From the NCBI RefSeq assembly GCF_041381155.1, contig NC_091134.1, forward strand, positions 61,182,902 to 61,246,901: 64,000 nucleotides of DNA. The letters are read 5' to 3'. The notes below the pieces were generated by a model. That model was given only the letters and a program-made list of their open reading frames with translations, was not told where the DNA came from and did no database searches. This document shows positions 3,596-53,394 of the stretch, one piece after another. The first letter of the stretch is position 1, and each line of letters begins with the position of its first letter. This DNA is from Argopecten irradians (taxonomy: Eukaryota). The translations under genes and the position numbers were made by a program.

Positions 3596-4400
3596 TTAGA
3601 TTAGGGTTCGTAAAATAATATTTTGGTATGTGTATTTGCCTAATTTGATGAACTGATATGTGAGTACAATTAAATAAGTAGTGAAATTCGTCACCAATAC
3701 CGTTGGAACAAAGGGGACAAATTCTTTCATTGCGGGTATATTAGCCCATCGTCCCGTTTCTATGGGCAAATGTAAATTAGAAGTACGTAATTTAACAATA
3801 TTTTTTCTATCTTTTTCATTCAGTTTCAATAGATAATTCTCCATTTGAAAATCGTTTTTAAAAACTGTATACATTTTACCTTTTGATGACAAATTCATAT
3901 CATTAAACCACCTTTGAATAAATTGATCCTTAAGTATTTGTTTAATGGTAAATTTTAAATATATTTTGTTCAATGTACAAGATTCCTGTATATTCCATAC
4001 AAAATTTAAGCCTGTCTCATAAAAAATATTTCGCACAAAATCGATCCATTTAAAACTTATGTTTCCATTTACATGCAATTGGTACATTAGTTTATATATT
4101 TTGCTTGACAATTTATCAGTGGAAATTAAATTATACCAAAACATGACCATTCTACATTTCACTTCAATACTCAACGGATATCTACTCAATTCACCATAGA
4201 CTATAAAGTTTGGTGTACTACGTCTCAAACCTAAGATACGTTTACAGAATTGCAAGTGATTTTTTTCAATAAGAAAATACAAATATTGTACATACAAAGT
4301 GAAGGCATCGATGTAGCCAGTTTTTCGATTTATTTCGAGTAAACATAGCTCACCAACAGTCCAAATTGTATCGTAGTCATATGTGTGAGAATGCCTATCA
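3596..4400 (-). mobile_element. Non-LTR retrotransposon (LINE, CR1/L2-like) ORF2 C-terminal fragment
   Basis: The 233-aa ORF contains ..ILGLRRSTPNFIVYGELSRYPL.. and ..KLRTSNLHLPIETGRW... These are motifs typical of the region downstream of RT in CR1/L2-type LINE pol proteins. There is no upstream RT or EN, so it is a fragment. Confidence 0.6.
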
Positions 4401-8747: not shown

Positions 8748-9275
8748 GTCTGAAACAAATCATTCTTTAAAAAATTCAACACTTATCATTGGAAAATTTG
8801 GGTAGTAGACTTAGAATATTGATTCAATAGTATTTAGTAATTAGACTGATGTGGGAGACCAATAGTAACCTTAGTGTCCATCTATATGTCTAAAACTAAA
8901 ACAAAAATTGTCCCATTTCAGTAAAAATTGGTATACAGGAGTATTTGCAGGGGTTACTAGTCATTTACTACTAACTACAGCTAAGGGGTCAACTATATGG
9001 GGTCAGGGCCATTACTGTTGGATTTCAGTTTTCTAATAAGTTTTACTACGATAACCAAATATGATATTGACTTCCCAATCACTAGTCAGTTTTAGTGAGG
9101 ATGATGTTTTAGTGATTTCACGTGCATGTGATTTAATTTGATTCGTAAATTGATTGTACATATTTCACATTTTTTCATCTGCAGGAAAAGGCCATGTAGT
9201 GTACTTACCTGGCAATTTTAAAGTTATCTTGGTATTGAATGTCTCCCCTCCTTAAAATCACCACCTTTTTGGATT

Positions 9276-10935
9276 TTTAGCCCACCATCATCAGATGGTG
9301 GGCTATTTAAATCACCTTTTGTCTGTGGTCCGTCGTCCGTCCGTCCGTCCTTCTTTCCGTCCGTCCGTCCGTTAACAATTCTTGTTACCGCTATTTCTCA
9401 GAAAGTACTGAAGTGATCTTTCTCAAATTTCATATGTAGGTTCCCCTATGGCCCTAGTTGTGCATATTGCATTTTGGGACTGATCAGTTAACAAGATGGC
9501 TGCAAGGTGGCCATCTTGGATTTTGGTAGTTAAAGTTTGTTACCGCTATTTCTCAAAAAGTGCAGAAGGGATCTTTCTCAAATTTTATATGTAGGTTCCC
9601 CTAGGACCCTAGTTGTGCATTTTGCATTTTGGGACGGATCGGTCAACAAGATGGCCGACAGGTGGCCATCTTGGATTTTGGTAGTTAAAGTTTGTTACCG
9701 CTATTTCTCAAAAAGTGCAGAAGGGATCTTTCTCAAATTTTATATGTAGGTTCCCCTATGGCCCTAGTTGTGCATATTGCATTTTGGGACCGTTCGGTCA
9801 AAAATATGGCCGACAGGCGGCCATCTTGGATTTTGATAGTTGAAGTTTATTACCGCTATTTCTCAGAAAGTACTGAAGGGATCTTTCTCAAATTTCATAT
9901 GTAGGTTCCCCTGGGACCCTAGTTGTGCATATTGCATTTTGGGACCGATCGGTCAACAAGATGGCCAACAGGCGGCCATCTTTGATTTTGGTAGTTAAAG
10001 TTTGTTACCGCTATTTCTCAAAAAGTGCTGAAGGGATCTTTCTCAAATTTTATATGTAGGTTCCCCTAGGACCCTAGTTGTGCATATTGCATTTTGGGAC
10101 CGATCGGTCAACAAGATGGCCAACAGGCGGCCATCTTTGATTTTGGTAGTTAAAGTTTGTTACCGCTATTTCTCAAAAAGTGCTGAAGGGATCTTTCTCA
10201 AATTTTATATGTAGGTTCCCCTAGGACCCTAGTTGTGCATATTGCATTTTGGGACCGATCGGTCAACAAGATGGCTGACATGCGACCATCTTGGATTTTT
10301 ATAGTTAAAGTTTGTTACCGCTATTTCTCAGAAAGTACTGAAGGGATCTTTCTCAAATTTCATATGTATGTTCCCCTAGGGCCCTAGTTGTGCATATTGC
10401 ATTTTGGGACCGATCGGTCAACAAGATGGCTGCCATGCAGCTATCATGGATTTTTATAGTTAAAGTTTTTTATTGCTTTTTCTCAGAAAGTATTGAAGGG
10501 ATCTGTCTCAAATTTCATATGTAGGTACCCCTAGGTCCCTAGTTGTGCATATTGTGTTTTGGGACCGATCGGTCAACAAGATGGCCACCTGGCAGCCATC
10601 TTGGATTTTGATAGTTAAAGTTTGTTATTGCTATTTCTAAAAAAGTACTGAAGGGATCTCTCTCAAATTGTATATGCAGGTTCCCCTAGGGCCCTAGTTG
10701 TGCATATTGCATTTTGTAACTATTAGGTCAACAAGATGGCTGCACAGCCGCCATCTTGGATTTCATCGTTGAAGTTTGTTACCACTATTTCTTAGAAAGT
10801 ACTATAGCGATCTATCTCAAATTTTATATGTAGTGTGTTTGAAAAAGTTTGAAAAGCAGGGAAAAGATCCCTCTTTCCATTGTCAGACATAGATAATTCT
10901 TTGGTGGGCGCCAAGATCCCTCTGGGATCTCTTGT
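9276..10935 (-). mobile_element. HINE/DINE-1-like non-autonomous element carrying satellite B. On the + strand it reads, in order:
- TTTAG + hairpin (agcccaccatcatcagatggtgggct)
- (CCGT)n microsatellite 9319-9372
- ~155-bp satellite B x ~9.5 (9383-10835)
- palindromic tail (agatccctctgggatct)
   Basis: Direct reading. The order of hairpin, tetranucleotide microsatellite and tandem array matches the 3-prime to 5-prime layout reported for Helentron-associated HINEs. Confidence 0.6.
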
Positions 10936-11002
10936 TAAGGCAATGTGGTTTTCACTAATTACTACATCTTATTTCTCATATTTTTCATATTTTTATCAAC
11001 AG

Positions 11003-16382: not shown

Positions 16383-17194
16383 ACTTCAGACCATAGGCAC
16401 ATTTTTAGTAGGGGGGAGGAGGGCAGTATTCTTGAATCAACGATCCCCACCTGTCCGTAGAAAAAAATGTCCAGACACTTCCACCTTATTTATTGAATCA
16501 ATTTCAGTGAAACTTGGCAGCAACGCTGGCAGGGCCATGTGTAGATGTGTATGCAGGTTTTATCTTATAAAAAATTTGGTTGCCAAGGTAAACAGGTCAC
16601 TGTACACAGGTTTTATAATGTAGCCAATGACTAAGCTTGTTGTTAAATTTTGGATAATTTTCTTCAAACTTGGTGAATTGTTGTAACACATGGATATCTA
16701 TAATTTGACACACCACATGATTCCATAGCAGTTTTTATGGAAAAAAGATTGTACATAGATAATCTCATTTACTCTCTGATATCTTAAGCATGCACTATGA
16801 TTACCAGGTACCAGGTGAGCGATTTTATTGTGTTCATGAAACTTAACCCTGTTATCTGACGTAAATGACCATACAATGTAGTTTGTTTCTGCCGAATAAT
16901 TATGTAATGAGAGCAATATCTGACATTTAAATCAATTTGTAAGTTTTAATTGTAATATTAAATACTTCACAATTACTTAGTCGGTATATCCAAAGATGTA
17001 ATGTAAATAAAAAACAAAAAGAAAAAAAAACCTCTGAGCCTTGTGTTTCCGTAAGGTTGTCAGTTATACACATATTTCATAACTTAATATTAATGTCATA
17101 CAATTGAGACACAAAACCTTAATTAACCACTTTGTTGGAACTGTCCAAAAGTATATACTTTTCATAGACATACAGAATTCTGATTTATTCTCAG

Positions 17195-17233
17195 GAATCC
17201 ACCAGTTATTCGACAGATGATACCGGTGAACAT
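17195..17233 (+). CDS. Gene A micro-exon (ESTSYSTDDTGEH)
   Basis: Acceptor tgatttattctcag| and donor gaacat|gtaagt. It is 39 nt and phase 0. Support is weak because it is short. Confidence 0.4.
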
Positions 17234-17274
17234 GTAAGTAATACATCAATTATTGTATGGATGTACCTTAAGGT

Positions 17275-18512
17275 GGCTAAGATGTGATATTGTTTATGTA
17301 GACAGAAGATCAAGTAAATGAGGTAGAGGTGTGATATTGTTTATGTAGACAGAAGATCAAGTAAATGAGGTAGAGGTGTGATATTATTTATGTAGACAGA
17401 AGATCAGGTAAATGAGGAAGAGATGTGATATTGTTTATGTAGACAGAAGATCAGGTAAATGAGGCTGAGATGTGATATTGTTTATGTAGACAGAAGGTCA
17501 GGTAAATGAGGTAGAGATGTGATATTGTTTATGTAGACAGAAGATCAGGTAAATGGGGTAGAGATGTGATATTGTTTATGTAGACAGAAGATCAAGTAAA
17601 TGAGGTAGAGATGTGATATTGTTTATGTAGACAGAAGATCAGGTAAATGAGGTAGAGATGTGATATTGTTTATGTAGACAGAAGATCAGGTAAATGAGGT
17701 AGAGATGTGATATTATTTATGTAGACAGAAGATCAGGTTAATGAGGTAGAGATGTGATATTGTTTATGTAGACAGAAGTTTAGTAAAAATGGGTAGTGAT
17801 ATGATATTGTTTATGTAGACAGAAGATCAGGTAAATGAGGTAGAGATGTGATATTGTTTATGTAGACAGAAGATCAGGTTAATGAGGTAGAGATGTGATA
17901 TTGTTTATGTAGACAGAAGATCAGGTAAATGAGGCTGAGATGTGATATTGTTTATGTAGACAGAAGATCAGGTAAATGAGGAAGAGATGTGATATTGTTT
18001 ATGTAGACAGAAGATCAGGTAAATGAGGTAGAGATGTGATATTGTTTATGTAGACAGAAGACCAGGTTAATGAGGTAGAGATGTGATATTGTTTATGTAG
18101 ACAGAAGACCAGGTTAATGAGGTAGAGATGTGATATTGTTTATGTAGACAGAAGACCAGGTTAATGAGGTAGAGATGTGATATTGTTTATGTAGACATAA
18201 GATCAGGTAAATGAGTTAGAGATGTGATATTGTTTATGTAGACAGAAGATCAGGTAAATGAGGTAGATATGTGATATTGTTTATGTAGACAGAAGATCAG
18301 GTAAATGAGGTAGAGATGTGATATTGTTTATGTAGACAGAAGATCAAGTAAATGAGGTAGAGATGTGATATTGTTTATGTAGACAGAAGATCAGGTAAAT
18401 GAGGTAGAGATGTGATATTGTTTATGTAGACAGAAGATCAAGTAAATGAGGTAGAGATGTGATATTGTTTATGTAGACAGAAGATCAGGAAATGAGGTAG
18501 AGATGTGATATT
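17275..18512. repeat. 37-bp minisatellite (unit ~tgtgatattgtttatgtagacagaagatcaggtaaatgaggtagaga) x ~33, left block
   Basis: Direct reading. It sits in a gene A intron. Confidence 0.9.
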
Positions 18513-18514
18513 GT

Positions 18515-20370
18515 TTTTAGGTCATCTGACCCGAAGGGTCAGGATGACCTATAGTCATCATGTTTCATCCGTCATCGTCCGCCGTCCGCCGTCCGCCGTG
18601 CGTTAACTTTTCACATTTTGAACTTCTTCTCAAGTTCTACCAGTGCAATTTGGCTGAAACTTGCATGAAATGATCCTGACATGGTCCCGACAAAGTGTTG
18701 TTATTTTTCGGGTCGATCCGAAATCAAAGATGGCCGCCACAGCCGCCATCTTGAAAACACATTTTGAACTTCTTCTCAAGTTCTACCGGTGCGATTTGAC
18801 TGAAACTTGCATGAAATGATCCTGACATGGTCCCGACAAAGTGTTGTTAATTTTCAGGTCGATCCGAAATCCAAGATGGCCGCCACAGCCACCATCTTGA
18901 AAACACATTTTGAACTTCTTCTAAAGTTCTACTGGTGCGCTGAAACTTGCATGAAATGATCCTGACATGGTCCTGACAAAGTGTTGTTATTTTTCGGGTC
19001 GATCCGAAATCCAAGATGGCCGCCACAGTCGCCATCTTGAAAACACATTTTGAACTTCTTCTCAAGTTCTACTGGTGCGATTTGGCTGAAAATTGCATGA
19101 AATGATCCTGACATGGTCCTGACAAAGTGTTGTTATTTTTCGGGTCGATCCGAAATCCAAGATGGCAGCCACAGCCGCCATCTTGAAAACACATTTTGAA
19201 CTTCTTCTCAAGTTCTACTGGTGCGATTTGGCTGAAACTTGCATGAAATGATCCTGACATGGTCCCGACAAAGTGTTGTTATTTTTCGGGTCGATCCCAA
19301 ATCCAAGATGGCCGCCACAGCCGCCATCTTGAAAACACATTTTGAACTTCTCAAGTTCTACCGGTGCGATTTGGCTGAAACTTGCATGAAATGATCCTGA
19401 CATGGTCCCGACAAAGTGTTGTTATTTTTCGGGTCGATCCGAAATCCAAGATGGCCGCCACAGCCGCCATCTTTAAAACACATTTTGAACTTCTCAAGTT
19501 CTACCGGTGCGATTTGGCTGAAACTTGCATGAAATGATCCTGACATGGTCCCGACAAAGTGTTGTTATTTTTCGGGTCGATCCGAAATCCAAGATGGCCG
19601 CCACAGCCGCCATCTTGAAAACACATTTTGAACTTCTTCTCAAGTTCTACCGGTGCGATTTGACTGAAACTTGCATGAAATGATCCTGACATGGTCCAAA
19701 CAAAGTGTTGTTATTTTTCGGGTCGATCCGAAATCCAAGATGGCCGCCACAGCCGCCATCTTGAAAACACATTTTGAACTTCTTCTCAAGTTCTACTGGT
19801 GCGATTTGACTGAAACTTGCATGAAATGATCCTGGCATGGTCCCGACAAAGTGTTGTTATTTTTCGGGTCGATCCGAAATCCAAGATGGCCACCACAGCC
19901 GCCATCTTGAAAACACATTTTGAACTTCTTCTCAAGTTCTACCGGTGCGGTTTGACTGAAACTTGCATGAAATGATCCTGACATGGTCCTGACAAAGTGT
20001 TGTTATTTTTTAGGTTGATACGAAACCCAAGATGGCAGCCACAGCCGCCATCTTGAAAACATATTTCGAACTTCTTCTCAAGTTCTACCGGTGCGATTTG
20101 GCTGAAACTTGCATGAAATGATCCTGACATGGGCCCGACAAAGTATTGTTACATCTCTGGTTGATCACAAATCGAAGCTGGCTACCATGACACTCTATCT
20201 AATTAATTTCCTATATGTTAAGGCCCTTGGGCCTCTTGTTTGAAATAAAATTTGTTGAAAGAAATTGAAAATGATCCTGACATGGTCCTGACAAAGTGAC
20301 ACCATATATAATTAATTTTACTATTGCCAAGGTAGTCAGATGACCGTTAAGGCCCTTTGGGCCTCTTGTT
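18515..20370 (-). mobile_element. HINE-like element carrying satellite C, inserted inside the 37-bp minisatellite. On the + strand it reads, in order:
- TTTTAG + hairpin (ggtcatctgacccgaagggtcaggatgacc)
- (CCGT/CCGC)n
- ~146-bp satellite C x ~10.5 (18603-20150)
- duplicated tail ..gtcagatgaccgttaaggccctttgggcctcttgtt
   Basis: The minisatellite unit is split (..gatattgttt | element | gtagacataagatcagg..) and resumes in phase. The tail contains gtcagatgacc, which is complementary to the head stem ggtcatctgac (an asymmetric TIR). Confidence 0.65.
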
Positions 20371-22195
20371 GTAGACATAAGATCAGGTAAATGAGGAAGA
20401 GATGTGATATTATGAAGACAGAAGATCAGGTAAATGAGGAAGAGATGTGATATTGTTTATGTAGACAGAAGATCAGGTAAATGAGGTAGAGATGTGATAT
20501 TGTGTATGTAGACAGAAGATAAGGTAAATGAGGTAGAGATGTGATATTGTTTTTGTAGACAGAAGATAAGGTAAATGAGGAAGAGATGTGATATTGTTTT
20601 TGTAGACAGAAGATCAGGTAAATGGGGTAGAGATGTGATATTGTTTATGTAGACAGAAGATCAGGTAAATGAGGTAGAGGTGTGATATTGTTTATGTAGA
20701 CAGAAGATCAGGTAAATGAGGTAGAGATGTGATATTGTTTATGTAGACAGAAGATCAAGTAAATGAGGTAGAGGTGTGATATTGTTTATGTAGACAGAAG
20801 ATCAAGTAAATGAGGTAGAGATGTGATATTGTTTATGTAGACAGAAGATCAGGTAAATGAGGAAGAGATGTGATATTGTTTATGTAGACAGAAGATCAAG
20901 TAAATGAGGTAGAGGTGTGATATTGTTTATGTAGACAGAAGATCAAGTAAATGAGGTAGAGGTGTGATATTGTTTATGTAGACAGAAGATCAGGTTAATG
21001 AGGTAGAGATGTGATATTGTTTATGTAGACAGAAGACCAGGTTAATGAGGTAGAGATGTGATATTGTTTATGTAGATAGAAGATCAGGTAAATGAGGTAG
21101 AGATGTGATATTGTTTATGTAGACAGAAGATCAGGTTAATGAGGTAGAGATGTGATATTGTTTATGTAGACAGAAGGTCAGGTAAATGAGGTAGAGATGT
21201 GATATTGTTTATGTAGACAGAAGGTCAGGTAAATGAGGTAGAGATGTGATATTGTTTATGTAGACAGAAGGTCAGGTAAATGAGGTAGAGATGTGATATT
21301 GTTTATGTAGACAGAAGATCAGGTAAATGAGGTAGAGATGTGATATTGTTTATGTAGACAGAAGATCAGGTAAATGAGGTAGAGATGTGATATTGTTTAT
21401 GTAGACAGAAGACCAGGTAAATGAGGTAGAGATGTGATATTGTTTATGTAGACAGAAGATCAGGTTAATGAGGTAGAGATGTGATATTGTTTATGTAGAC
21501 AGAAGATCAGGTAAATGAGGTAGAGATGTGATATTGTTTATGTAGACAGAAGATCAAGTAAATGAGGTTGAGATGTGATATTGTTTATGTAGACAGAAGA
21601 TCAGGTAAATGAGGTAGAGATGTGATATTGTTTATGTAGACAGAAGATCAGGTAAATGAGGTAGAGATGTGATATTGTTTATGTAGACAGAAGATCAGGT
21701 AAATGAGGTTGAGATGTGATATTGTTTATGTAGACAGAAGATCAGGTAAATGAGGAAGAGATGTGATATTGTTTATGTAGACAGAAGATCAGGTTAATGA
21801 GGTAGAGATGTATATGTTTATGTAGACAGAAGATCATAATGAGGTGTGTGATATGTTATGTAGACAGAAGATCAGGTAAATGAGGTAGAGATGTGATATT
21901 GTTTATGTAGACAGAAGATCAGGTAAATGAGGTAGAGATGTGATATTGTTTATGTAGACAGAAGATCAGGTAAATGAGGTAGAGATGTGATATTGTTTAT
22001 GTAGACAGAAGATCAGGTAAATGAGGTAGAGATGTGATATTGTTTATGTAGATAGAAGATCAGGTAAATGAGGTAGAGATGTGATATTGTTTATATAGAC
22101 AGAAGGTAAGGTAAATGAGGTAGAGATGTGATATTGTTTATGTAGATAGAAGATCAGGTAAATGAGGTTGAGATGTGATATTGTGTAGACAAAAG
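20371..22195. repeat. 37-bp minisatellite, right block x ~49
   Basis: Same unit as the block at 17275-18512. Confidence 0.9.
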
Positions 22196-22610
22196 ATAAG
22201 GTAAATAGAGGTCAATCATTTAAATCGATGCATGTCATAATATTCTTCATGGATTGTAACCAAATTTGGCCAGAAACATCCTCTAAGAGTTTGTATAGTT
22301 ATTGGCTCTGACCCCCTGGGGCAGGAGGGGCGAGGTTTAATAGGAGAAATAGAGGTAATTCCTTTAAATCGCTACTAGTCATAGAGTTCTGCATTAAATT
22401 TGGCTAGAAACATCTTTTGAGGAAGGGGAACAGACTGTTTATAAATTTTGGCTGTAAAGCAGAATAAGTGGAGCCTAATGGGGAAATTAGTAAATATCTA
22501 AATTTACTTCAGAAAAGAAACAATGAACCTGTAATCAGAACCTTACTTGGCATTACAAACCAGGTGAGCGATACAGGCCCTCTTGGCCTCTTGTTTAGAT
22601 GATTTCAATA
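22196..22610 (-). mobile_element. Headless fragment of a satellite-D element: ~1.7 monomers plus tail (..accaggtgagcgatacaggccctcttggcctcttgttt)
   Basis: It matches the 31054-33057 element at the monomer and tail. Confidence 0.55.
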
Positions 22611-22673
22611 CTTTTCTCTTTACTTTATTTTTGAATATAAACTGATAATTAGATAAGTTTTGTCTCTTGATAG

Positions 22674-29389: not shown

Positions 29390-30957
29390 ATATATTGATG
29401 ATGTTATGCTTTTGTCTTAAGTATGGAGCCATCCTTTATGAAGTCACAGTGGCATATGTGAGTAAAGCCAGTCTGCCATATGGCAGTCATTGCTTTATGT
29501 CAATCTGGCAAAATTTCCAACTATGCAGTCAATGATGTCCCTAAGCATCATTATAGAATCTCGCCATGTTTTATTTTGAAATCCTTGTTGACCTTGTTTT
29601 GATAATAAATAATGTAATTAAAGACTTCTTTGCTTGCAAATAATTGGAGCATTCAGAATTTAAAAAAGTAGTTGTTGTAAAAATTCCAGTTACCTCTGTT
29701 TGTTACATTTTTGTATATCACCACATTGAATGTTTACTTTTTATCATCAGTAGAGTGTCAGAAGGGGAGTCAATACCTTCATCTTTACTGGTGACGGAAA
29801 AAATGGTGAGTTTACACAGATAAGCATTCCAGATTCATATTAATCCACCGGCATGCTGGAATGACTAGATCACTAAATAAAGTATTTCAGTGAAAGTTAC
29901 TCTGTGTTCTATTTTGTCTTTGTATGTAACAGTTATCTATCCTTGAGTTATCTATTTGGCCCACTTCATTTAAAATGCCAGGTGGAGTCAGTCATGTGGC
30001 TGGCTTATAAAAGGCTTGTGTCAATAAAATTCTGCCAGTAAGCTAATTAAATCCAAATTTGTATTTAGAAAATGTGATGTTTTCCCAGATAATTACGGTA
30101 ATATTTATTCCTGACTGGCATGGTAAGTGTGTTTTTAGCTCACCTGGCCTGAAGGGCCGGTGAGCTTATATATATTGATGATGTTTGCTTTTGTCTTAAG
30201 TATGGAGCCATCCTTTATGAAGTCACAGTGGCATATGTGAGTAAAGCCAGTCTGCCATATGGCAGTCATTGCTTTATGTCAATCTGGCAAAATTTCCAAC
30301 TATGCAGTCAATGATGTCCCTAAGCATCATTATAGAATCTCGCCATGTTTTATTTTGAAATCCTTGTTGACCTTGTTTTGATAATAAATAATGTAATTAA
30401 AGACTTCTTTGCTTGCAAATAATTGGAGCATTCAGAATTTAAAAAAGTAGTTGTTGTAAAAATTCCAGTTACCTCTGTTTGTTACATTTTTGTATATCAC
30501 CACATTGAATGTTTACTTTTTATCATCAGTAGAGTGTCAGAAGGGGAGTCAATACCTTCATCTTTACTGGTGACGGAAAAAAATGGTGAGTTTACACAGA
30601 TAAGCATTCCAGATTCCAGATTCATATTAATCCACCGGCATGCTGGAATGACTAGATCACTAAATAAAGTATTTCAGTGAAAGTTACTCTGTGTTCTATT
30701 TTGTCTTTGTATGTAACAGTTATCTATCCTTGAGTTATCTATTTGGCCCACTTCATTTAAAATGCCAGGTGGAGTCAGTCATGTGGCTGGCTTATAAAAG
30801 GCTTGTGTCAATAAAATTCTGCCAGTAAGCTAATTAAATCCAAATTTGTATTTAGAAAATGTGATGTTTTCCCAGATAATTACGGTAATATTTATTCCTG
30901 ACTGGCATGGTAAGTGTGTTTTTAGCTCACCTGGCCTGAAGGGCCGGTGAGCTTATG
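29390..30957. repeat. Tandem duplication of a ~780-bp unit (29390-30169 and 30170-30957). Each copy ends with the hairpin tttttagctcacctggcctgaagggccggtgagcttat.
   Basis: The two copies are >98% identical by eye. Indels include ttatgc/tttgc and A6/A7. Confidence 0.85.
29750..29804 (+). CDS. Gene A candidate exon (-S RVSEGESIPSSLLVTEKM), in copy 1 of a 780-bp tandem duplication. The paralogous copy at 30530-30585 has an extra A that breaks the frame.
   Basis: Acceptor tttttatcatcag| and donor aaaatg|gtgagt. Only copy 1 keeps the phase chain intact. Confidence 0.35.
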
Positions 30958-33057
30958 TCATGGCGCGGCGTCCGTCGTCGTCCGTGCCGTCCGTCCGTCC
31001 GTCCGTCCGTCCGTCCGTCGTCCGTCCGTCCGTCCGTCGTCCGTCCGTCCGTCAACATTTCCTTTAAATCGCTACTAGTCATAGAGTTCTGCATGGATTG
31101 TAACCAAATTTGGCCACAAACATCCTTGGGGGAGGGGGAACAGAACTTGTATAAATTTTGGCTCTGTCCCCCCCGGGGCAGGAGGGGCGGGGCCCAATAG
31201 GGGAAATAGAGGTAAATCCTATAAATCGCTACTTGTCCTAGAGTTCTGCATGGATTGTAATCAAATTTGACCACAAACATCCTTGGGGGAGGGGGAACAG
31301 AACTTGTATAAATTTTGGCTCTGGTCCCTCAGGGGCAGGAGGGGCGGGGCCCAATAGGGGAAATAGAGGTAAATCCTATAAATCGCTACTTGTCCTAGAG
31401 TTCTGCATGGATTGTAACCAAATTTGACCACAAACATCCTTGGGGGAGCAGAAACAGAACTTGTATATAAATTTTGGCTCTGGTCCCCCAGGGGCAGGAG
31501 GGGCGGGGCCCAATAGGGGAAATAAAGGTAAATCCTTTATATCGCTACTTGTAATAGAGTTCTACATGAATTGTAACCAAATTCGGCCACAAACATCCTT
31601 GGGGGAAGGGGAACAGAACTTGTGTAAATTTTGACTCTGGTCCCCCGGGGGCAGGAGGGGCGGGGCCCAATAGGGGAAATAGAGGTAAATCCTTTAAATC
31701 GCTACTAGTCATTGAGTTCTGAATGGAATGTAACCAAATTTGGCCACAAACATCCTTGGGGGAAGGGGAACAGACCTTGTATAAATTTTGGCTCTGACCC
31801 CCGGGGGCAGGAGGGGCGGGGCCCAATAGGGGAAATAGAGGTAAATCCTTTAAATCTCTACTAGTCATAGAGCTCTACATGAATTGTAACCAAATTTGGC
31901 CACAAACATCCTTGGGGGAAGGGGAACAGAACTTGTATAAATTTTGGTTCTGATCCCCCAGGGGCAGGAGGGGCGGGGCCCAATAGGGGAAATAGAGGTA
32001 AATCCTTTATATCGCTACTTGTCATAGAGTTCTGAATGGAATGTAACCAAATTTGGCCATAAACATCCTTATGGGAAGGGGAAGAGAACTTGTATAAATT
32101 TTGGCTCTAGTCCCCCGGGGGCAGGAGGGGCGGGGCCCAATAGGGGAAATAGAGGTAAATCCTTTAAATCGCTACTAGTCATTGAGTTCTGAATGGAATG
32201 TAACCAAAATTTGGCCACAAACATCCTTTGGGGAAGGGGAACAGAACTTGTATAGATTTTGGCTCTGACCCCCCCGGGGGCAGGAGGGGCGGGGCCCAAT
32301 AGGGGAAATAGAGGTAAATCCTTTATATCGCTACTTGTCATAGAGTTCTGAATGGAATGTAACCAAATTTGGCCATAAACATCCTTTGGGGAAGGGGAAG
32401 AGAACTTGTATAAATTTTGGCTCTAGTCCCCCGGGGGCAGGAGGGGCGGGGCCCAATAGGGGTAATAGAGGTAAATCCTTTAAATCGCTACTAGTCATTG
32501 AGTTCTGAATGGAATGTAACCAAAATTTGCCACAAGCATCCTTTGGGGAAGGGGAACAGAACTTGTATAGATTTTGGCTCTGACCCCCCCGGGGGCAGGA
32601 GGGGCGGGGCCCAATAGGGGAAATAGAGGTAAATCCTTTAAATTGCTACTAGTCATAGAGTTCTGCATGGATTGAAACCAAATTTGGCCACAAACATCCT
32701 TGGGGGAAGGGGAACAGAACTTGTATAAATTTTGACTCTGGCCCCCCGAGGACAGGACGGGTGGGGCCCAATAGGGGAAATAGAGGTAAATCCTATAAAT
32801 CACTTCTTGTCCTAGAGTTTTTCTTGGATTGTGACCAAATTTAGCCATAAACATCCTTGGGGGAAGGGGAACAGAACTTGTATAAATTTTGGCTCTGACC
32901 CCCTGGGGGCGGGAGGGGTGGGGCCCAATAGGGGATTTAGAGGTTAATATTAAAATTCCTTCAGAAAAGAAACAATGAACCTGTATTCAGAACATTACTT
33001 GGCATTACAAACCAGGTGAGCGATACAGGCCCTCTGGGCCTCTTGTTTACAAACAAC
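30919..33057 (-). mobile_element. HINE-like element carrying satellite D. On the + strand it reads, in order:
- hairpin agctcacctggcctgaagggccggtgagct
- (CGTC/CCGT)n microsatellite 30958-31053
- ~157-bp satellite D x12 (31054-32935)
- tail ..ttcagaaaagaaacaatgaacctgta..accaggtgagcgatacaggccctctgggcctcttgtttac
   Basis: Direct reading. The satellite-D monomer contains the GC-box-like aggaggggcggggccc. Confidence 0.6.
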
Positions 33058-33179: not shown

Positions 33180-33430
33180 CAGTGCAGATATGCATAATTG
33201 ATATCTGAACAAGACATATTCATCTTTATTTAGGTCATCTAACCTGGAGAGTCAGGATGACCTATATTACAGTGCAAATATGCATAATTGATATCTGAAC
33301 TAGATATATTCATCTTTATTTAGGTCATCAAATTAAACCTGAACGGTCAGGATGACCTATATTCATCATGCTTTGTCTGTTGTCATGCTCTGTTTGTAAA
33401 CATTTAAACCACTTCTTAATAACCGATGTA
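33180..33430 (-). mobile_element. Degenerate element. It has two tandem copies of a ~90-bp segment, each with the hairpin head (taggtcatctaacctggagagtcaggatgacct / taggtcatcaaattaaacctgaacggtcaggatgacct), then a decayed microsatellite and the start of a satellite-A monomer.
   Basis: Compared with the 53395 element head, tgtcatcatgc..cgtc..aaacttttcatttaaatgacttcttc. Confidence 0.45.
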
Positions 33431-36497: not shown

Positions 36498-37920
36498 GAG
36501 TTCTGAAGAAGACTCGAAACAAGATCATCCAGTGACGCTACTATGTGCAGATTCTCTGCCTTCCTTATCAGAACGGTCTGCCTCACCTAAAACATCATTT
36601 TTACCCACTACAATAGAGGAGGACGTCTCAGAAGCTATTAGCTGTACCATTGCAAGGCCTGATAAGGTTGCCACATCGGTTTCCCCAAGGCCGTTAGGTG
36701 CAGGTCCACCCGAAGTCCCCCTATTTGACATGATGGATTTGAAATCCAGAGGCCCTCCAGATCATACTTCTGGTATGCTTAAAACCTATCGTCATCTAAG
36801 CCAATTTCATCCCATTGAATTGTCAGAAATACAACCTCCACCTGCCATGGCCTTTACACCTGGAGCAGCACCTTCCCATCAACAACAATCTGCAATGGCT
36901 GTTACACTGGGAGCTCCTCCACAAACACAGTCTGCCATGGCCTATACATCAGAAGTCCCTCTTCCTCTTCCACAACAAGCTGCTAATAGGTCAGCAATAA
37001 GTGCTCCATCAGCTAGGCCTCCTCCGCCTCCTCCGCCTCGTCAAATGCTTGACATGGCATTTACATTAAGTGGACCTCCTCCCCCACCAAGGGCTCCATC
37101 AGCTGGGCCTCCTCTGCCTCCTCAAATGCTTGACATGGCTTTTACATCAAGTGGACCTCCTCCCCCACCAAGGGCTCCATCAGCTAAACCTCCTCCGCCT
37201 CCTCCAATGCTTGGCAAGGATTTTACATCAAGTGGACCTCCTCGCCCACCAAGGGCTCCATCAGCTAGACCTCCTCTGCCTCCTCCAATGCTTGGCAAGG
37301 ATTTTACATCAAGTGGACCTCCTCGCCCACCAAGGGCTCCATCAGCTAAACCTCCTCCGCCTCCTCCAATGCTTGGCAAGGATTTTACATCAAGTGGACC
37401 TCCTCGCCCACCAAGGGCTCCATCAGCTAAACCTCCTCCGCCTCCTCCAATGCTTGGCAAGGATTTTACATCAAGTGGACCTCCTCGCCCACCAAGGGCT
37501 CCATCAGCTAGACCTCCTCTGCCTCCTCCAATGCTTGACAAGGCTTTTACATCAAGTGGACCACCTCCTCCACCTCCTGTATCTCTCATGGCTGTTACAT
37601 CAAGTAGACCTCCTTCCCGATCAAATTTTCGATTAGCTGGACCACCTCCACCTCCTCCAATGCCTTACAAGGCTTTTACATCAAGTGGATCTTCTTCCCC
37701 ACCAATGCCTCAAATTACATTTTGTAAAATGTCTGCAAAGATTCCTTCAAGTCATAAAAGTTACTCATCTGACGATGATGATGAGTATTACAGGGTGCAT
37801 TCTCTCAGTAAGCCTTCCAGACCTGATCCAATTCCAATGTCTTTGGATTATGACCTTGATGATGTACCAAAATATAAGGATGAAGGCAAAGATGGGGTTG
37901 TGCATTTTGCATGTTCACAG
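36498..37920 (+). CDS. Gene A large exon. It is proline-rich and low-complexity, with 8 tandem 23-aa repeats (FTSSGPPRPPRAPSAKPPPPPPMLGKD) encoded by 69-bp DNA repeats (about 36990-37560). It has an FH1-like polyproline character.
   Basis: A 470-aa ORF with acceptor gtttttttttacag| and donor tcacag|gtatgt. It starts with 1 nt completing a codon and ends in phase 0. Confidence 0.6.
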
Positions 37921-38776
37921 GTATGTCCAAGAGTTTGTGATTGATATATTGCAATACATGATATTTACTGATATCATAATTATTTAGGTATTTTTTGCTA
38001 AATAAATACATAATACATTATGTATATTATATTTGATTCAAAAGTGTAGTCATGTACATTCCTAGAACCGATCAAATTGCACTAAATAATTCAATCTATA
38101 CATATGAGAAACGGATACATTTTATCATAAATGTACTAGTTAATCTACATTAGTGCTCCTTGATTACCTATACCTCATGAGAAAACATGCATTCGTTTAT
38201 ATAAGGGTTGTCAAACCGGTTGGAATTCACTAACCGGTTACTCGATATATTTTCCGATAAAGTAACCGGTTAGTTGGTGAACTTATATGTAACAATGGCT
38301 ATAATTTAACGTACCGGTTTGTGTGCTGCAGTTTAAACGAGTTGTACTAACGACAGTGTGACTACCTTTTTAATAAGACTATTTTGTTAAACCAACACTT
38401 TCAATTCTGATATTTCTAAGAACTACTTTCGGTATGGAATCTGGAAATTCCAGATTCTGGAAAGAATAGAAAGTACAAAAAAGTTAAACTGACTTTATGC
38501 AGCGAGTCGTGAACAGTTGCTGATAGCAAATGGAGCCACAGCAAATTCTACCAATGTTGTGTTCGTTTGTTAACTACTATTAGCGTAGGCCTTTTGTTTA
38601 GACGTATTGCTATATAATTTGAAACTGTCACATCAAGAATAATGTAAATACTGCAAGTTTCTCTAAACATTGTACATTGTAAAGAGCCTGAATAAACCTG
38701 AATAAAGTTTGAAGAGATAGACTACAGGTATGATGTGTGTCTAGTTTTCAATCATTTGTTTACCAATATCTTTTTT

Positions 38777-39754: not shown

Positions 39755-39865
39755 GTAAATAATTAAGCTTCAACACATCTTCTGGTTCTAAAGATGTGAT
39801 ACATTTTTCTCTGACTGTATTTATAACACCCTCTGTTGTAGGTTATCATTAGTATAAAGTCATAG

Positions 39866-42800
39866 GTAGGTATTGTTATACTGTCCTTGGTACATAGTCA
39901 TTGCTAGGTATTGTTATACTGTCCTTGGTACATAGTCATTGTTAGGTATTGTTATACTTGTCCATTGGTAATAGTCATTGTTAGGTATTTTTATACTGTC
40001 CTTGGTATATAGTCATTGTTAGGATTGTTATACTGTCCTTGGTACATAGTCATTGTTAGATATTGTTATACTATCCTTGGTATATAGTCATTGTTAGGTA
40101 TTGTTATACTGTCCTTGGTATATAGTCATTGTTAGGTATTGTTATACTGTCCTTGGTACATAGTCATTGTTAGGTATTGTTATACTGTCCTTGGTATATA
40201 GTCATTGTTAGGTATTGTTATACTATCCTTGGTATATAGTCATTGTTAGGTATTGTTATACTGTCCTTGGTATATAGTCATTGTTAGGTATTGTTATACT
40301 GTCCTTGGTATATAGTCATTGTTAGGTATTGTTATACTGTCCTTGGTATATAGTCATTGTTAGGTATTGTTATACTGTCCTTGGTATATAGTCATTGTTA
40401 GGTATTGTTATACTTTCCTTGGTATATAGTCATTGTTAGGTATTGTTATACTATCCTTGGTATATAGTCATTGTTAGGTATTGTTATACTGTCCTTGGTA
40501 TATAGTCATTGTTAGGTATTGTTATACTGTCCTTGGTATATAGTCATTGTTAGGTATTGTTATACTGTCCTTGGTATATAGTCATTGTTAGGTATTGTTA
40601 TACTGTCCTTGGTATATAGTCATTGTTAGGTATTGTTATACTGTCCTTGGTATATAGTCATTGTTAGGTATTGTTATACTGTCCTTGGTATATAGTCATT
40701 GTTAGGTATTGTTATACTGTCCTTGGTATATAGTCATTGTTAGGTATTGTTATACTATCCTTGGTATATAGTCATTGTTAGGTATTGTTATACTGTCCTT
40801 GGTATATAGTCATTGTTAGGTATTGTTATACTGTCCTTGGTATATAGTCATTGTTAGGTATTGTTTATCTGTCCTTGGACTATATAGTCATTGTTAGGTA
40901 TTGTTATACTGTCCTTGGTATAGTCATTGTTCATTGTTATACTTCCTGGTATAGTCATTGTTTATTGTTATACTGTCCTTGGTATATAGTCATAGTTAGG
41001 TATTGTTATACTGTCCTTGGTACATAGTCATTGTTAGGTATTGTATTGTACTGTCCTTGGTACATAGTCATTGTTAGTATTGGTATTGTTATACTGTCCT
41101 TGGTACATAGTCATTGTTAGGTATTGTTATACTGTCCTTGGTATATAGTCATTGTTAGGTATTGTTATACTGTCCTTGGTACATAGTCATTGTTAGGTAT
41201 TGTTATACTGTCCTTGGTACATTAGTCATTGTTAGGTATTGTTATACTGTCCTTGGTATATAGTCATTGTTAGGTATTGTTATTACTGTCCTTGGTACAT
41301 AGTCATTGTTAGGTATTGTTATACTGTCCTTGGTATATAGTCATTGTTAGGTATTGTTATACTGTCCTTGGTATATAGTCATTGTTAGGTATTGTTATAC
41401 TGTCCTTGGTATATAGTCATTGTTAGGTATTGTTATACTGTCCTTGGTACATAGTCATTGTTAGGTATTGTTATACTATCCTTGGTATATAGTCATTGTT
41501 AGGTATTGTTATACTGTCCTTGGTATATAGTCATTGTTAGGTATTGTTATACTGTCCTTGGTATATAGTCATTGTTAGGTATTGTTATACATCCTTGGTA
41601 TAGTCATTGTTAGGTATTGTCCTTTAGGTATTGTTATACTGTCCTTGGTATATAGTCATTGTTAGGTATTGTTATACTGTCCTTGGTATATAGTCATTGT
41701 TAGGTATTGTTATACTGTCCTTGGTATATAGTCATTGTTAGGTATTGTTATACTGTCCTTGGTATATAGTCATTGTTAGGTATTGTTATACTGTCCTTGG
41801 TATATAGTCATTGTTAGGTATTGTTATACTGTCCTTGGTATATAGTCATTGTTAGGTATTGTTATACTGTCCTTGGTATATAGTCATTGTTAGGTATTGT
41901 TATACTGTCCTTGGTACATTATCATTGTTAGGTATTGTTATACTGTCCTTGGTACATAGTCATTGTTAGGTATTGTTATACTGTCCTTGGTACATAGTCA
42001 TTGTTAGGTATTGTTATACTGTCCTTGGTATATAGTCATTGCTAGGTATTGTTATACTGTCCTTGGTACATAGTCATTGTTAGGTATTGTTATACTGTCC
42101 TTGGTATATAGTCATTGTTAGGTATTGTTATACTGTCCTTGGTATATAGTCATTGTTAGGTATTGTTATACTGTCCTTGGTATATAGTCATTGTTAGGTA
42201 TTGTTATACTGTCCTTGGTATATAGTCATTGTTAGGTATTGTTATACTATCCTTGGTATATAGTCATTGTTAGGTATTGTTATACTGTCCTTGGTACATA
42301 GTCATTGTTAGGTATTGTTATACTATCCTTGGTATATAGTCATTGCTAGGTATTGTTATACTATCCTTGGTATATAGTCATTGTTAGGTATTGTTATACT
42401 GTCCTTGGTATATAGTCATTGTTAGGTATTGTTATACTGTCCTTGGTATATAGTCATTGTTAGGTATTGTTATACTGTCCTTGGTATATAGTCATTGTTA
42501 GGTATTGTTTATACTATCCTTGGTATATAGTCATTGTTAGGTATTGTTATACTGTCCTTGGTATATAGTCATTGTTAGGTATTGTTATACTGTCCTTGGT
42601 ACATAGTCATTGTTAGGTATTGTTATACTGTCCTTGGTACATATAGCCATTGTTAGGTATTGTTATACTGTCCTTGGTATATAGTCATTGTTAGGTATTG
42701 TTATACTGTCCTTGGTATATAGTCATTGTTAGGTATTGTTATACTATCCTTGGTATATAGTCATTGTTAGGTATTGTTATACTGTCCTTGGTATATAGTC

Positions 42801-45800
42801 ATTGTTAGGTATTGTTATACTGTCCTTGGTATCATAGTCATTGTTAGGTATTGTTATACTGTCCTTGGTATATAGTCATTGTTAGGTATTGTTATACTGT
42901 CCTTGGTATATAGTCATTGTTAGGTATTGTTATACTGTCCTTGGTATATAGTCATTGTTAGGTATTGTTATACTGTCCTTGGTATATAGTCATTGTTAGG
43001 TATTGTTATACTGTCCTTGGTATATAGTCATTGTTAGGTATTGTTATACTGTCCTTGGTACATAGTCATTGTTAGGTATTGTTATACTGTCCTTGGTACA
43101 TAGTCATTGTTAGGTATTGTTATACTGTCCTTGGTACATAGTCATTGTTAGGTATTGTTATACTGTCCTTGGTACATAGTCATTGTAGGTAGGTACTTCC
43201 TTGGTATAGCATTGTTAGGTATTGTTATACTGTCCTTGGTACATAGTCATTGTTAGGTATTGTTATACTGTCCTTGGTACATAGTCATTGTTAGGTATTG
43301 TTATACTGTCCTTGGTATATAGTCATTGTTAGGTATTGTTATATACTGTCCTTGGTATATAGTCATTGTTAGGTATTGTTATACTGTCCTTGGTATATAG
43401 TCATTGTTAGGTATTGTTATACTGTCCCTTAGGTATTGGTCCTTGGTATATAGTCATTGTTAGGTATTGTTATACTGTCCTTGGTATATAGTCATTGTTA
43501 GGTATTGTTTATACTGTCCTTGGTACATAGTCATTGTTAGGTATTGTTATACTATCCTTGGTATATAGTCATTGTTAGGTATTGTTATACTGTCCTTGGT
43601 ATATAGTCATTGTTAGGTATTGTTATACTATCCTTGGTATATAGTCATTGTTAGGTATTGTTATACTGTCCTTGGTATATAGTCATTGTTAGGTATTGTT
43701 ATACTGTCCTTGGTACATAGTCATTGTTAGGTATTGTTATACTGTCCTTGGTATATAGTCATTGTTAGGTATTGTTATACTGTCCTTGGTATATAGTCAT
43801 TGTTAGGTATTGTTATACTGTCCTTGGTACATAGTCATTGTTAGGTATTGTTATACTGTCCTTGGTACATAGTCATTGTTAGGTATTGTTATACTGTCCT
43901 TGGTATATAGTCATTGTTAGGTATTGTTATACTATCCTTGGTATATAGTCATTGTTAGGTATTGTTATACTGTCCTTGGTACATAGTCATTGTTAGATAT
44001 TGTTATACTGTCCTTGGTACATAGTCATTGTTAGGTATTGTTATACTGTCCTTGGTATATAGTCATTGTTAGGTATTGTTATACTGTCCTTGGTACATAG
44101 TCATTGTTAGGTATTGTTATACTGTCCTTGGTACATAGTCATTGTTAGGTATTGTTATACTGTCCTTGGTATATAGTCATTGTTAGGTATTGTTATACTA
44201 TCCTTGGTATATAGTCCATGTTAGGTATTGTTATACTGTCCTTGGTATATAGTCATTGTTAGGTATTGTTATACTGTCCTTGGTATATAGTCATTGTTAG
44301 GTATTGTTATACTGTCCTTGGTATATAGTCATTGTTAGGTATTGTTATACTGTCCTTGGTATATAGTCATTGTTAGGTATTGTTATACTGTCCTTGGTAT
44401 ATAGTCATTGTTAGGTATTGTTATACTATCCTTGGTATATAGTCATTGTTAGGTATTGTTATACTGTCCTTGGTACATAGTCATTGCTAGGTATTGTTAT
44501 ACTGTCCTTGGTATATAGTCATTGTTAGGTATTGTTATACTGTCCTTGGTATATAGTCATTGTTAGGTATTGTTATACTGTCCTTGGTATATAGTCATTG
44601 TTAGGTATTGTTATACTATCCTTGGTACATAGTCATTGTTAGGTATTGTTATACTATCCTTGGTACATAGTCATTGTTAGGTATTGTTATACTGTCCTTG
44701 GTATATAGTCATTGTTAGGTATTGTTATACTGTCCTTGGTATATAGTCATTGTTAGGTATTGTTATACTGTCCTTGGTATATAGTCATTGTTAGGTATTG
44801 TTATACTGTCCTTGGTATATAGTCATTGTTAGGTATTGTTATACTGTCCTTGGTATATAGTCATTGTTAGGTATTGTTATACTGTCCTTGGTATATATAG
44901 TCATTGTTAGGTATTGTTATACTGTCCTTGGTATATAGTCATTGTTAGGTATTGTTATACTGTCCTTGGTACATAGTCATTGTTAGGTATTGTTATACTG
45001 TCCTTGGTACATAGTCATTGTTAGGTATTGTTATACTATCCTTGGTATATAGTATTGTACTATCCTTGGTATATAGTCATTGTTAGGTATTGTTATACTG
45101 TCCTTGGTATATAGTCATTGTTAGGTATTGTTATACTGTCCTTGGTATATAGTCATTGTTAGGTATTGTTATACTATCCTTGGTATATAGTCATTGTTAG
45201 GTATTGTTATACTGTCCTTGGTACATAGTCATTGTTAGGTATTGTTATACTATCCTTGGTAACATAGTCATTGTTAGGTATTGTTTATACTATCCTTGGT
45301 ATATAGTCATTGTTAGGTATTGTTATACTGTCCTTGGTATATAGTCATTGCTAGGTATTGTTATACTGTCCTTGGTATATAGTCATTGTTAGGTATTGTT
45401 ATACTGTCCTTGGTATATAGTCATTGTTAGGTATTGTTATACTGTCCTTGGTATATAGTCATTGTTAGGTATTGTTATACTGTCCTTGGTACATAGTCAT
45501 TGTTAGGTATTGTTATACTGTCCTTGGTATATAGTCATTGTTAGGTATTGTTATACTGTCCTTGGTACTTATAGTCATTGTTAGGTATTGTTATACTGTC
45601 CTTGGTATATAGTCATTGTTAGGTATTGTTATACTGTCCTTGGTACATAGTCATTGTTAGGTATTGTTATACTGTCCTTGGTATATAGTCATTGTTAGGT
45701 ATTGTTATACTGTCCTTGGTACATAGTCATTGTTAGGTATTGTTATACTATCCTTGGTATATAGTCATTGTTAGGTATTGTTATACTGTCCTTGGTATAT

Positions 45801-46878
45801 AGTCATTGTTAGGTATTGCTAGGTATTGTTATACTGTCCTTGGTACATAGTCATTGTTAGGTATTGTTATACTATCCTTGGTATATAGTCATTGTTAGGT
45901 ATTGTTATACTGTCCTTGGTATATAGTCATTGTTAGGTATTGTTATACTGTCCTTGGTATATAGTCATTGTTAGGTATTGTTATACTATCCTTGGTATAT
46001 AGTCATTGTTAGGTATTGTTATAGGTATTGTTATACTGTCCTTGGTATATAGTCATTGTTAGGTATTGTTATACTGTCCTTGGTATATAGTCATTGTTAG
46101 GTATTGTTATACTGTCCTTGGTACATAGTCATTGTTAGGTATTGTTATACTGTCCTTGGTATATAGTCATTGTTAGGTATTGTTATACTGTCCTTGGTAT
46201 ATAGTCATTGTTAGGTATTGTTATACTGTCCTTGGTATATAGTCATTGTTAGGTATTGTTATACTATCCTTGGTATATAGTCATTGTTAGGTATTGTTAT
46301 ACTGTCCTTGGTATATAGTCATTGTTAGGTATTGTTATACTGTCCTTGGTATATAGTCATTGTTAGGTATTGTTATACTGTCCTTGGTACATAGTCATTG
46401 TTAGGTATTGTTATACTGTCCTTGGTATATAGTCATTGTTAGGTATTGTTATACTGTCCTTGGTATATAGTCATTGTTAGGTATTGTTATACTGTCCTTG
46501 GTATATAGTCATTGTTAGGTATTGTTATACTGTCCTTGGTATATAGTCATTGTTAGGTATTGTTATACTGTCCTTGGTATATAGTCATTGTTAGGTATTG
46601 TTATACTGTCCTTGGTATATAGTCATTGTTAGGTATTGTTATACTGTCCTTGGTATATAGTCATTGTTAGGTATTGTTATACTATCCTTGGTATATAGTC
46701 ATTGTTAGGTATTGTTATACTGTCCTTGGTATATAGTCATTGTTAGTGTTAGGTATTGTTATACTGTCCTTGGTATATAGTCATTGTTAGGTATTGTTAT
46801 ACTGTCCTTGGTATATAGTCATTGTTAGGTATTGTTATACTGTCCTTGGTATATAGTCATTGTTAGGTATTGTTATAT
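39866..46878. repeat. 36-bp minisatellite (tatagtcattgttaggtattgttatactgtccttggta), ~7 kb and ~195 units, in a gene A intron
   Basis: Direct reading. Units carry occasional t/c (tatag/catag) and g/a variants. Confidence 0.95.
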
Positions 46879-53153: not shown

Positions 53154-53394
53154 TTTCTATAACTGATGCAAAATTGAAAAGACTGAGTAACTAGAGTATC
53201 ATTTGAATATGAAGAATTTTGAAATGAGATTAATGTTCTTTGATTACAAGACATTTGAAATTAGGCAAAGGCATTTCAAATGAACTATATACTTTTCAAA
53301 TGAAAATTGTTAGGTAGTTGATATGGTTGTATGTGAAAAGGTTTATTTTTTTATGAAAACTTATGGTGTGCTGATTATGTAAAAGACATATTTT

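Follow-up and report, generated by a model that had tools for sequence, protein, structure and literature searches.

A probable non-autonomous Helentron in the T run of a 47-bp minisatellite of the scallop Argopecten irradians

Non-autonomous Helentrons (HINEs), which include pearl, DTC84, Cg_HINE and DINE-1, are DNA transposons of the rolling-circle type with a satellite-like array in their centre. Published descriptions of HINEs have centred on oysters, clams and mussels. Here, a stretch of 64,000 nucleotides from the scallop Argopecten irradians (contig NC_091134.1, positions 61,182,902 to 61,246,901 of the forward strand; hereafter the window) was analysed, in which foreign DNA of about 1.85 kb interrupts a minisatellite at 17280-22212. 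The insert is very probably a HINE that integrated into a T run of the already existing 47-bp minisatellite.

In the Pacific oyster, Cg_HINE corresponds to Helitron-N*_CGi in Repbase (Vojvoda Zeljko et al. 2020, PMC7492417). Its modules are a 5′ subterminal inverted repeat (subTIR) of 11-12 bp, a complementary inverted repeat (IR) 1-12 bp away, a GTCY-type microsatellite, an array of 140-180 bp repeats in fixed orientation and a right flank with a 3′ subTIR and a palindrome (PMC7492417); the GTCY microsatellites are located in the left flanks (PMC7492417). Targets of Cg_HINE are T-rich or TT, no target site duplication (TSD) is formed and insertion into other repeats is frequent (PMC7492417). 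The scallop locus agrees with Cg_HINE in the modules, the T-rich target and the insertion into another repeat, and any TSD at it is no longer than TT; the likeness is one of module layout, with no sequence identity shown.

The interrupted minisatellite and its target

The two blocks of the minisatellite were delimited by Tandem Repeats Finder (TRF) and by the register of the units as follows:

17280-18516, + strand: left block, TRF period 47, 26.3 copies, 95% matches, consensus AGATGTGATATTGTTTATGTAGACAGAAGATCAGGTAAATGAGGTAG
20371-22212, + strand: right block, TRF 20370-22212, 39.6 copies, 94% matches, consensus as in the left block

The left block holds 26 full units and positions 1-16 of a split unit, and the right block restarts at position 19 and runs for about 39 further units, the final ones being degenerate. 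When both blocks were aligned to the 47-bp consensus, the last base of the left block fell on unit position 16 (..GATATTGTTT, GTTT, 18516) and the first base of the right block on unit position 19 (GTAGACA.., 20371). The same interruption had been quoted in an earlier note on this DNA as ..gatattgttt[insert]gtagacataag... The missing unit positions 17 and 18 can be supplied by two of the four Ts at the junctions (18517-18518 and 20369-20370), and the split unit reconstructed in this way is exactly 47 bp long (16 + 2 + 29) and differs from a variant unit at 20537 in two positions only.

The consensus is identical for the two blocks, the divergence between them (4.5%) is close to that within them (4.9% and 4.2%), and seven unit types are common to both, including the compound variants G3+A34 and C31+T37. 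Nowhere else in the 64-kb window did the 47-bp unit occur a second time. Because consensus and phase are the same on both sides, the minisatellite is one array that is interrupted in register. The earlier note had already described a periodicity that resumes in register on the far side, and had named a different consensus or phase in the two blocks as evidence that would speak against a single array; the consensus proved identical and the phase continuous. Two of its figures have to be corrected. The unit is not 37 bp long, as the TRF period is 47 bp, and the units after the insert number 39.6 by TRF and not ~49, a count that arose from the wrong period (1843/37 = ~49.8). The figure of 37 bp may have been confused with a 38-bp array at 39852-46877. 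This second minisatellite has the unit GTATATAGTCATTGTTAGGTATTGTTATACTGTCCTTG in ~183 copies with 92% matches, and its strand asymmetry is strong (AT skew -0.37, GC skew +0.29).

The insertion sits in the only run of at least three Ts in the unit. The consensus reads GTTTATGTAG at this point, and with the insert in place the sequence is GTTT-TT-AGG...CTTG-TT-GTAG. The variant GTTTTTGTAG is carried by the units at 20537 and 20584, which follow three and four units downstream, and an A45 variant is common to both of these and the split unit. Most likely, the target unit carried the GTTTTTGTAG variant. With a target of this type, host bases were neither lost nor gained, and the simplest history is a net gain of 1852 bp.

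The inserted segment may be written as 18517-20368, 18518-20369 or 18519-20370, because target and element ends are both T and the boundaries slide by 2 nt. The exact inference of the element boundaries that the earlier note expected is therefore out of reach by these 2 nt, an ambiguity of boundary and TT that is acknowledged for Helentrons too (PMC4067079). In keeping with the lack of an obvious TSD in that note, no duplication longer than TT is present at the junction; a duplicated TT and terminal Ts borne by the element would give one and the same sequence.

Organisation of the insert and related copies

The insert has a net length of 1852 bp, or 1854 bp when counted from GTTT to GTAG. Its parts are listed here in order.

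18514-18518, + strand: junction run of five Ts; 18514-18516 are unit positions 14-16, and 18517-18518 belong either to the unit (positions 17-18, TT variant) or to the element (5′-terminal Ts)
18519-18530, + strand: 5′ subTIR AGGTCATCTGAC, the reverse complement of which (GTCAGATGACCT) matches 20335-20345 at 11 of 12 positions
18538-18550, + strand: IR GTCAGGATGACCT, complementary to the 5′ subTIR, with which it folds into a 15-bp hairpin with a GAA loop
18569-18602, + strand: GTCY-type microsatellite-like segment (CCGTCATCGTCC(GCCGTCC)2GCCGTGCG), read from the sequence, end of the left flank
18612-20182, + strand: central tandem array ("satellite C"), 146-bp monomers x 10.6 (TRF, blastn)
20186-20240, + strand: inner right flank (RF1), with the palindrome AAGGCCCTTGGGCCT (20220-20234) and the end CTCTTGTT (20233-20240); weak 5-bp stem (alignments)
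20241-20298, + strand: 29-bp A/T-rich stretch, weakly monomer-like, then a 29-bp monomer fragment at 20270-20298 (blastn, alignments)
20296-20370, + strand: outer, complete right flank (RF2), with the 3′ subTIR GTCAGATGACC (20335-20345), the palindrome AAGGCCCTTTGGGCCT (20349-20364) and the terminal CTCTTGTT (20363-20370); 6-bp GC stem (alignments)

The modules thus follow one another as T run, 5′ subTIR, IR, GTCY microsatellite, 146-bp x 10.6 array, 3′ subTIR, GC palindrome and CTTGTT end. The 5′ subTIR, immediately behind the T run, is conserved in five related heads and kept in the copies at 53395 and 33232 and in two scallop contigs described below (L001 and L002). Its hairpin with the IR has a stability of -13.3 kcal/mol (z = -6.6), which was reached by none of 200 shuffles. 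At the other end, the 3′ subTIR GTCAGATGACC lies 25 nt inside the 3′ end and upstream of the RF2 palindrome (AGGCCC-TTT-GGGCCT, 20350-20364), which is 6 nt from the end; the stem of RF2 taken alone is not statistically exceptional (z = -1.9).

The monomers of the central array are 89-99% identical (mean pairwise identity 94.3%) and have a GC content of ~42%, and each contains an inverted repeat, CAAGATGGC(N10)GCCATCTTG, near the monomer end. The last monomer is diverged and partial, and the fragment at 20270-20298 is 97-100% identical to monomer positions 57-86. No open reading frame (ORF) of at least 80 amino acids (aa) was detected within 17200-22650 and no Rfam family matched the insert region; a coding element and an RNA gene were on these respective grounds rejected.

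Related heads and tails were found within the window at 53391, 33229, 33337, 25966 and 35334. A scan of metagenome contigs with the head pattern gave two matches, NSIT01000731.1 (L001) and NSIT01000495.1 (L002), both to heads only. In the alignment of six heads, four from the window and those of L001 and L002, the sequences are similar from the T run onwards and unrelated in the flanks upstream of it, and 3-6 Ts precede AGG or AGC in all related heads. The eight right flanks aligned from the window all end in CT(T/C)GTT, after which the sequences are unrelated, and the palindrome is present in 8/8. The window arrays of 145-157-bp monomers (9328-10833, 18612-20182, 30969-32948 and 53476-54158) are preceded by a (GTCC)n/(CGTC)n microsatellite. 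Such microsatellites adjoin other HINE arrays at 9328-9372 and 30969-31053, and the order of microsatellite and then array was found by TRF also at 9328-10833 and 30969-32948.

The insert was assigned to the HINEs because the full published set of modules is present, coding capacity is absent and related copies are located in unrelated flanks. A HINE is expected to have a 5′ subTIR of ~11-15 bp set 2-4 nt (a T string) from the 5′ terminus and, in the DINE-1/Cg_HINE type, a short complementary IR within ~1-22 bp of it, and the insert shows both. The class of the element, a Helentron-type HINE, is named here, the earlier note having given none. What that note did propose, a mobile element with a satellite-like array in a pre-existing minisatellite at a T-rich site, holds: the termini match those of independent copies, and the neighbouring units serve as proxies of the empty site.

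Three families, with the same order of modules, were distinguished in the window by 5′ and 3′ subTIRs that co-vary:

The studied insert, with tails also at 25966 and 35334: AGGTCATCTG paired with CAGATGACC
30921-33048: AGCTCACCTG paired with CAGGTGAGC, 157-bp repeats
9274-10937: AGCCCACCA paired with TGGTGGGC, 155-bp repeats

Some further features of these copies were observed. The 155-bp monomers at 9382-10833 contain a CAAGATGGCC motif that is related to the inverted repeat of the 146-bp monomer. The HINE at 53391-54337 displays a head with the AGGTCATCTG subTIR (86% identity to the studied insert's head), together with a right flank that has the CAGGTGAGCG subTIR of another family. This is either one element of chimeric origin or a pair of truncated ones that meet across a 145-bp x 4.7 array. 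The 5′ flank and head of the 157-bp HINE (cctgactggcatggtaagtgtgTTTTTAGCTCACCTGGCCTGAAGGGCCGGTGAGCTTAT) are present twice, at 30110-30170 and 30897-30960, about 790 bp apart, which points to a duplication of that left flank or to an insertion into it. Downstream of the 157-bp HINE, 180 bp from its 3′ end, two solitary HINE heads (TTTAGGTCATC..GGATGACCTATA) are located at 33190-33420 inside a direct duplication of ~108 bp.

In the NSIT01 whole-genome shotgun project, tissue of the king scallop (Pecten maximus) was sequenced and assembled with the aim of characterising an Endozoicomonas-like pathogen (PMC5772249). L001 and L002 have the same head and related 146-bp monomers and are ~86% identical over the left flank and first monomer, with different flanks. 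In both, the 146-bp monomers alternate with a longer monomer type of ~180 bp. The two contigs look like host (scallop) repeat DNA, that is, host contamination of the pathogen assembly. Zero matches were obtained with the tail and head patterns in prokaryotic genome contigs and with the tail pattern in viral contigs.

The duplicated right flank

The duplication of the tail reported in the earlier note is real, the motif AAGGCCC(T)TTGGGCCTCTTGTT being present at 20220-20240 and again at 20349-20370. The similarity reaches further upstream, as 20186-20240 matches 20296-20370 with indels, and RF1 and RF2 align over ~55 positions with several substitutions and two indels. RF1 lacks ~19 bp including the 3′ subTIR and has retained the GC hairpin and the CTTGTT end. 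Compared with the segment before RF1, the segment before RF2 lacks ~40 bp of the monomer end. RF1 continues with TGAAAT.. into monomer-like DNA and not into the GTAGACA of the minisatellite, and RF2 abuts unit position 19; the unit from the head to RF2 is therefore the one that entered the array.

Read-through of the 3′ end (end bypass) is the leading hypothesis for the double tail and the best available reading of this single copy. It was preferred because the inner tail is without the 3′ subTIR. For the Helitron Helraiser, 3′-end read-through with a defective 3′ hairpin was shown experimentally (PMC4778049).

The events might be depicted as follows: A Rep/helicase(-endonuclease) transposase, produced from another locus of the genome, would recognise the 5′ end and the 3′ subTIR/hairpin and move a single-stranded copy into a TT or T-rich target, by which no TSD would be made; these steps are taken from the established biology of Helentron families. 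The composite double tail would have formed at the donor site before the present insertion, for example by one copy being nested in another. With RF1 impaired by the loss of its subTIR, transposition may have continued for ~130 bp to the intact RF2, and the whole head-to-RF2 unit would then have been inserted into the 47-bp minisatellite.

A more far-reaching reading, possible but less likely than not, is that the composite of head, RF1 and RF2 is a natural record of 3′-end read-through by a Helentron transposase. If the loss of the subTIR caused the bypass, Helentron termination would need both the subTIR and the hairpin, unlike that of Helitron1, and the in-phase minisatellite would be a built-in ruler by which the element adds exactly two Ts to its target. 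Two points count against this proposal: the read-through model is built on one copy, and the need for a 3′ subTIR in Helentron termination is a conjecture from sequence. The double 3′ flank is nevertheless a small, testable lead on the termination signals of Helentrons.

A less likely, though possible, origin of the double tail is an event in situ or ordinary recombination, through a tandem duplication, unequal exchange between monomer-like sequences or a second, 5′-truncated HINE at the 3′ end of the first. The second segment starts in a monomer-like manner (about positions 33-86) and is followed by the right flank, as a duplicated unit of monomer part and right flank would be, and the array itself evolves by unequal exchange, as seen in its 89-99% identical monomers. 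Moreover, the substitutions and two indels between RF1 and RF2 indicate that the event was not recent. A duplication in situ, however, needs a breakpoint exactly at the last base of the element, and RF1 is followed by TGAAAT.. and not by GTAGACA. A 5′-truncated fragment of ~130 bp would be without the 5′ end needed for its own transposition. End bypass is kept here as the preferred reading of the double tail.

Alternative readings, surroundings and known systems

Several points weigh against the insertion of a HINE as depicted above. If the target had the consensus TTTAT instead of TTTTT, an A-to-T change or a loss of 2 nt would be required. The junction is explained as well by a TT duplication of the kind suggested for pearl and DTC84 as by two Ts borne by the element. 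Neither an autonomous Helentron partner nor a Rep/Hel ORF was found within the 64-kb window, and the empty site is represented by neighbouring units of the same molecule and not by an allele from another haplotype.

In a reading that we regard as improbable, the insert is a cut-and-paste miniature inverted-repeat transposable element (MITE) with a 2-bp TT (AA) TSD, as pearl and DTC84 were first described, and not a Helentron derivative. Given a TT-variant target, GTTT-TT-[AGG...CTTG]-TT-GTAG is exactly the sequence that a TT duplication would leave; every copy has at least two Ts before AGG or AGC and GTT at the 3′ end, and an AA TSD was proposed for pearl and DTC84 (PMC3879986). The inverted repeats are, however, asymmetric, the 5′ one near-terminal and the 3′ one 25 nt inside and followed by a GC hairpin and CTTGTT, which is the Helentron/Helitron2 layout. 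Copies have anything between 3 and 6 Ts at the 5′ end, which a fixed 2-bp TSD leaves unexplained, and empty-site analyses in oyster and mite gave no TSD (PMC7492417; PMC4067079). The layout of a MITE, with terminal inverted repeats at the extreme ends and a fixed TSD, is thus not that of the insert, where a hairpin and CTTGTT follow the internal 3′ repeat; of the MITE traits, a TT duplication alone is formally possible. Neither is the insert a canonical Helitron (Helitron1) with 5′-TC, 3′-CTRR and an A|T target: its ends are T(n)AGGTC and CTCTTGTT, and the junction has T where an A|T target would keep A.

That the two 47-bp blocks are not one array at all, but part of a larger array-element-array repeat copied as a block, or an assembly artefact, is hardly credible: the region is a HINE graveyard, with a relic abutting the right end (22213-22597) and another tail at 16811, and long tandem arrays are prone to misassembly, but the phase is exactly continuous (16 + 2 + 29 = 47), the consensus is identical, variants are common to both sides, both junctions are canonical family termini as defined from independent copies, and the 47-bp unit is without a second copy elsewhere in the window. 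The insertion of a HINE into one pre-existing array is the reading followed below.

The window is AT-rich (GC ~0.31-0.43) and crowded with tandem arrays, and its arrays of 145-157-bp monomers behind a microsatellite have a layout typical of bivalve genomes. One further HINE feature directly abuts the right end of the minisatellite, outside the insertion:

22213-22597, + strand: 5′-truncated relic of the 157-bp HINE family, with 157-bp repeats, the 3′ subTIR CAGGTGAGCG and the end CTCTTGTT; 76-78% to 31060-33049 by blastn

A derivation of the 47-bp unit from this relic was considered and is not convincing, as a 14-nt match (GGTAAAT-GAGGTA) was all that came to light. On the other side, a solitary 3′ subTIR CAGGTGAGCG is located at 16811-16850, ~430 bp upstream of the left end of the minisatellite. 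Two ORFs in the window were also noticed. The first (36532-37944, + strand) encodes 470 aa with 81-bp (27-aa) proline-rich repeats (..GPPPPPRAPSAKPPPPPPMLGKDFTSS..) and resembles a formin FH1-like or other low-complexity exon; a homology search (E<=1e-5) gave no hit for it, and the contig index had no exact match. The second (3596-4297, - strand; 233 aa) looks by eye like the C-terminal part of a non-LTR (long terminal repeat) retrotransposon reverse transcriptase.

Based on the periodic host sequence, which provides an internal empty site, a bivalve HINE can be seen to have entered a T run, most likely without loss of host bases and with no more than TT left ambiguous. How HINEs are organised in a scallop is illustrated here as well, by covariation of the subTIRs in three families, GTCY microsatellites and arrays of 145-157-bp monomers.

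Compared with Cg_HINE, the 146-bp monomers with ~42% GC are close to the 147-bp monomers with ~40% GC of CL6/Cg_HINE_6 (PMC7492417), and the 12-14-mers of the scallop element were absent from the C. gigas satellitome supplements. The arrays of Cg_HINE average 3-5 monomers, in contrast to 10.6 here, and a double right flank is not described for Cg_HINE (PMC7492417).

HINE/DINE-1 elements (Thomas et al. 2014) have, like the insert, subTIRs located a few nt from the 5′ end and tens of nt from the 3′ end (PMC4067079), an IR beside the 5′ subTIR, a microsatellite, central repeats and a 3′ stem-loop (PMC4067079). They also resemble the insert in their 2-5 boundary Ts, which vary among copies, and in their TT target, and their target site is left unmodified (PMC4067079). 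They differ in that their hosts are mite, mosquito and Drosophila instead of a bivalve, their sequences are unrelated and an autonomous partner was identified for them (PMC4067079).

Pearl of C. virginica and DTC84 of Donax trunculus consist of a flank, an (ACGG)n = (CCGT)n microsatellite, core repeats of ~150-160 bp and a second flank, in the same manner as the insert (PMC3879986). Their inverted repeats are likewise subterminal at one end, and the core repeat has a palindrome close to its end, which corresponds to CAAGATGGC..GCCATCTTG in each monomer here (PMC3879986). They were first classed as MITEs with a putative AA (= TT) TSD and usually have five core repeats or fewer (PMC3879986).

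Helitron1 and Helraiser have in common with the insert a GC-rich 3′ hairpin, a few bases from the end, as the terminator (PMC4778049). They form no TSD (PMC4778049), and the insert has none longer than TT. In these elements, read-through to a downstream terminator yields composite 3′ ends, as proposed here for RF1 and RF2 (PMC4778049). Helitron1 differs by its 5′-TC, 3′-CTRR and A|T target, in place of which the insert has a T run with AGG, a CTTGTT end and subTIRs. The locus is a clean textbook example that leaves the current understanding unchanged; the insertion of a HINE into a repeat is an ordinary event in a known class of elements, and the oyster study reports such insertions as common (PMC7492417).

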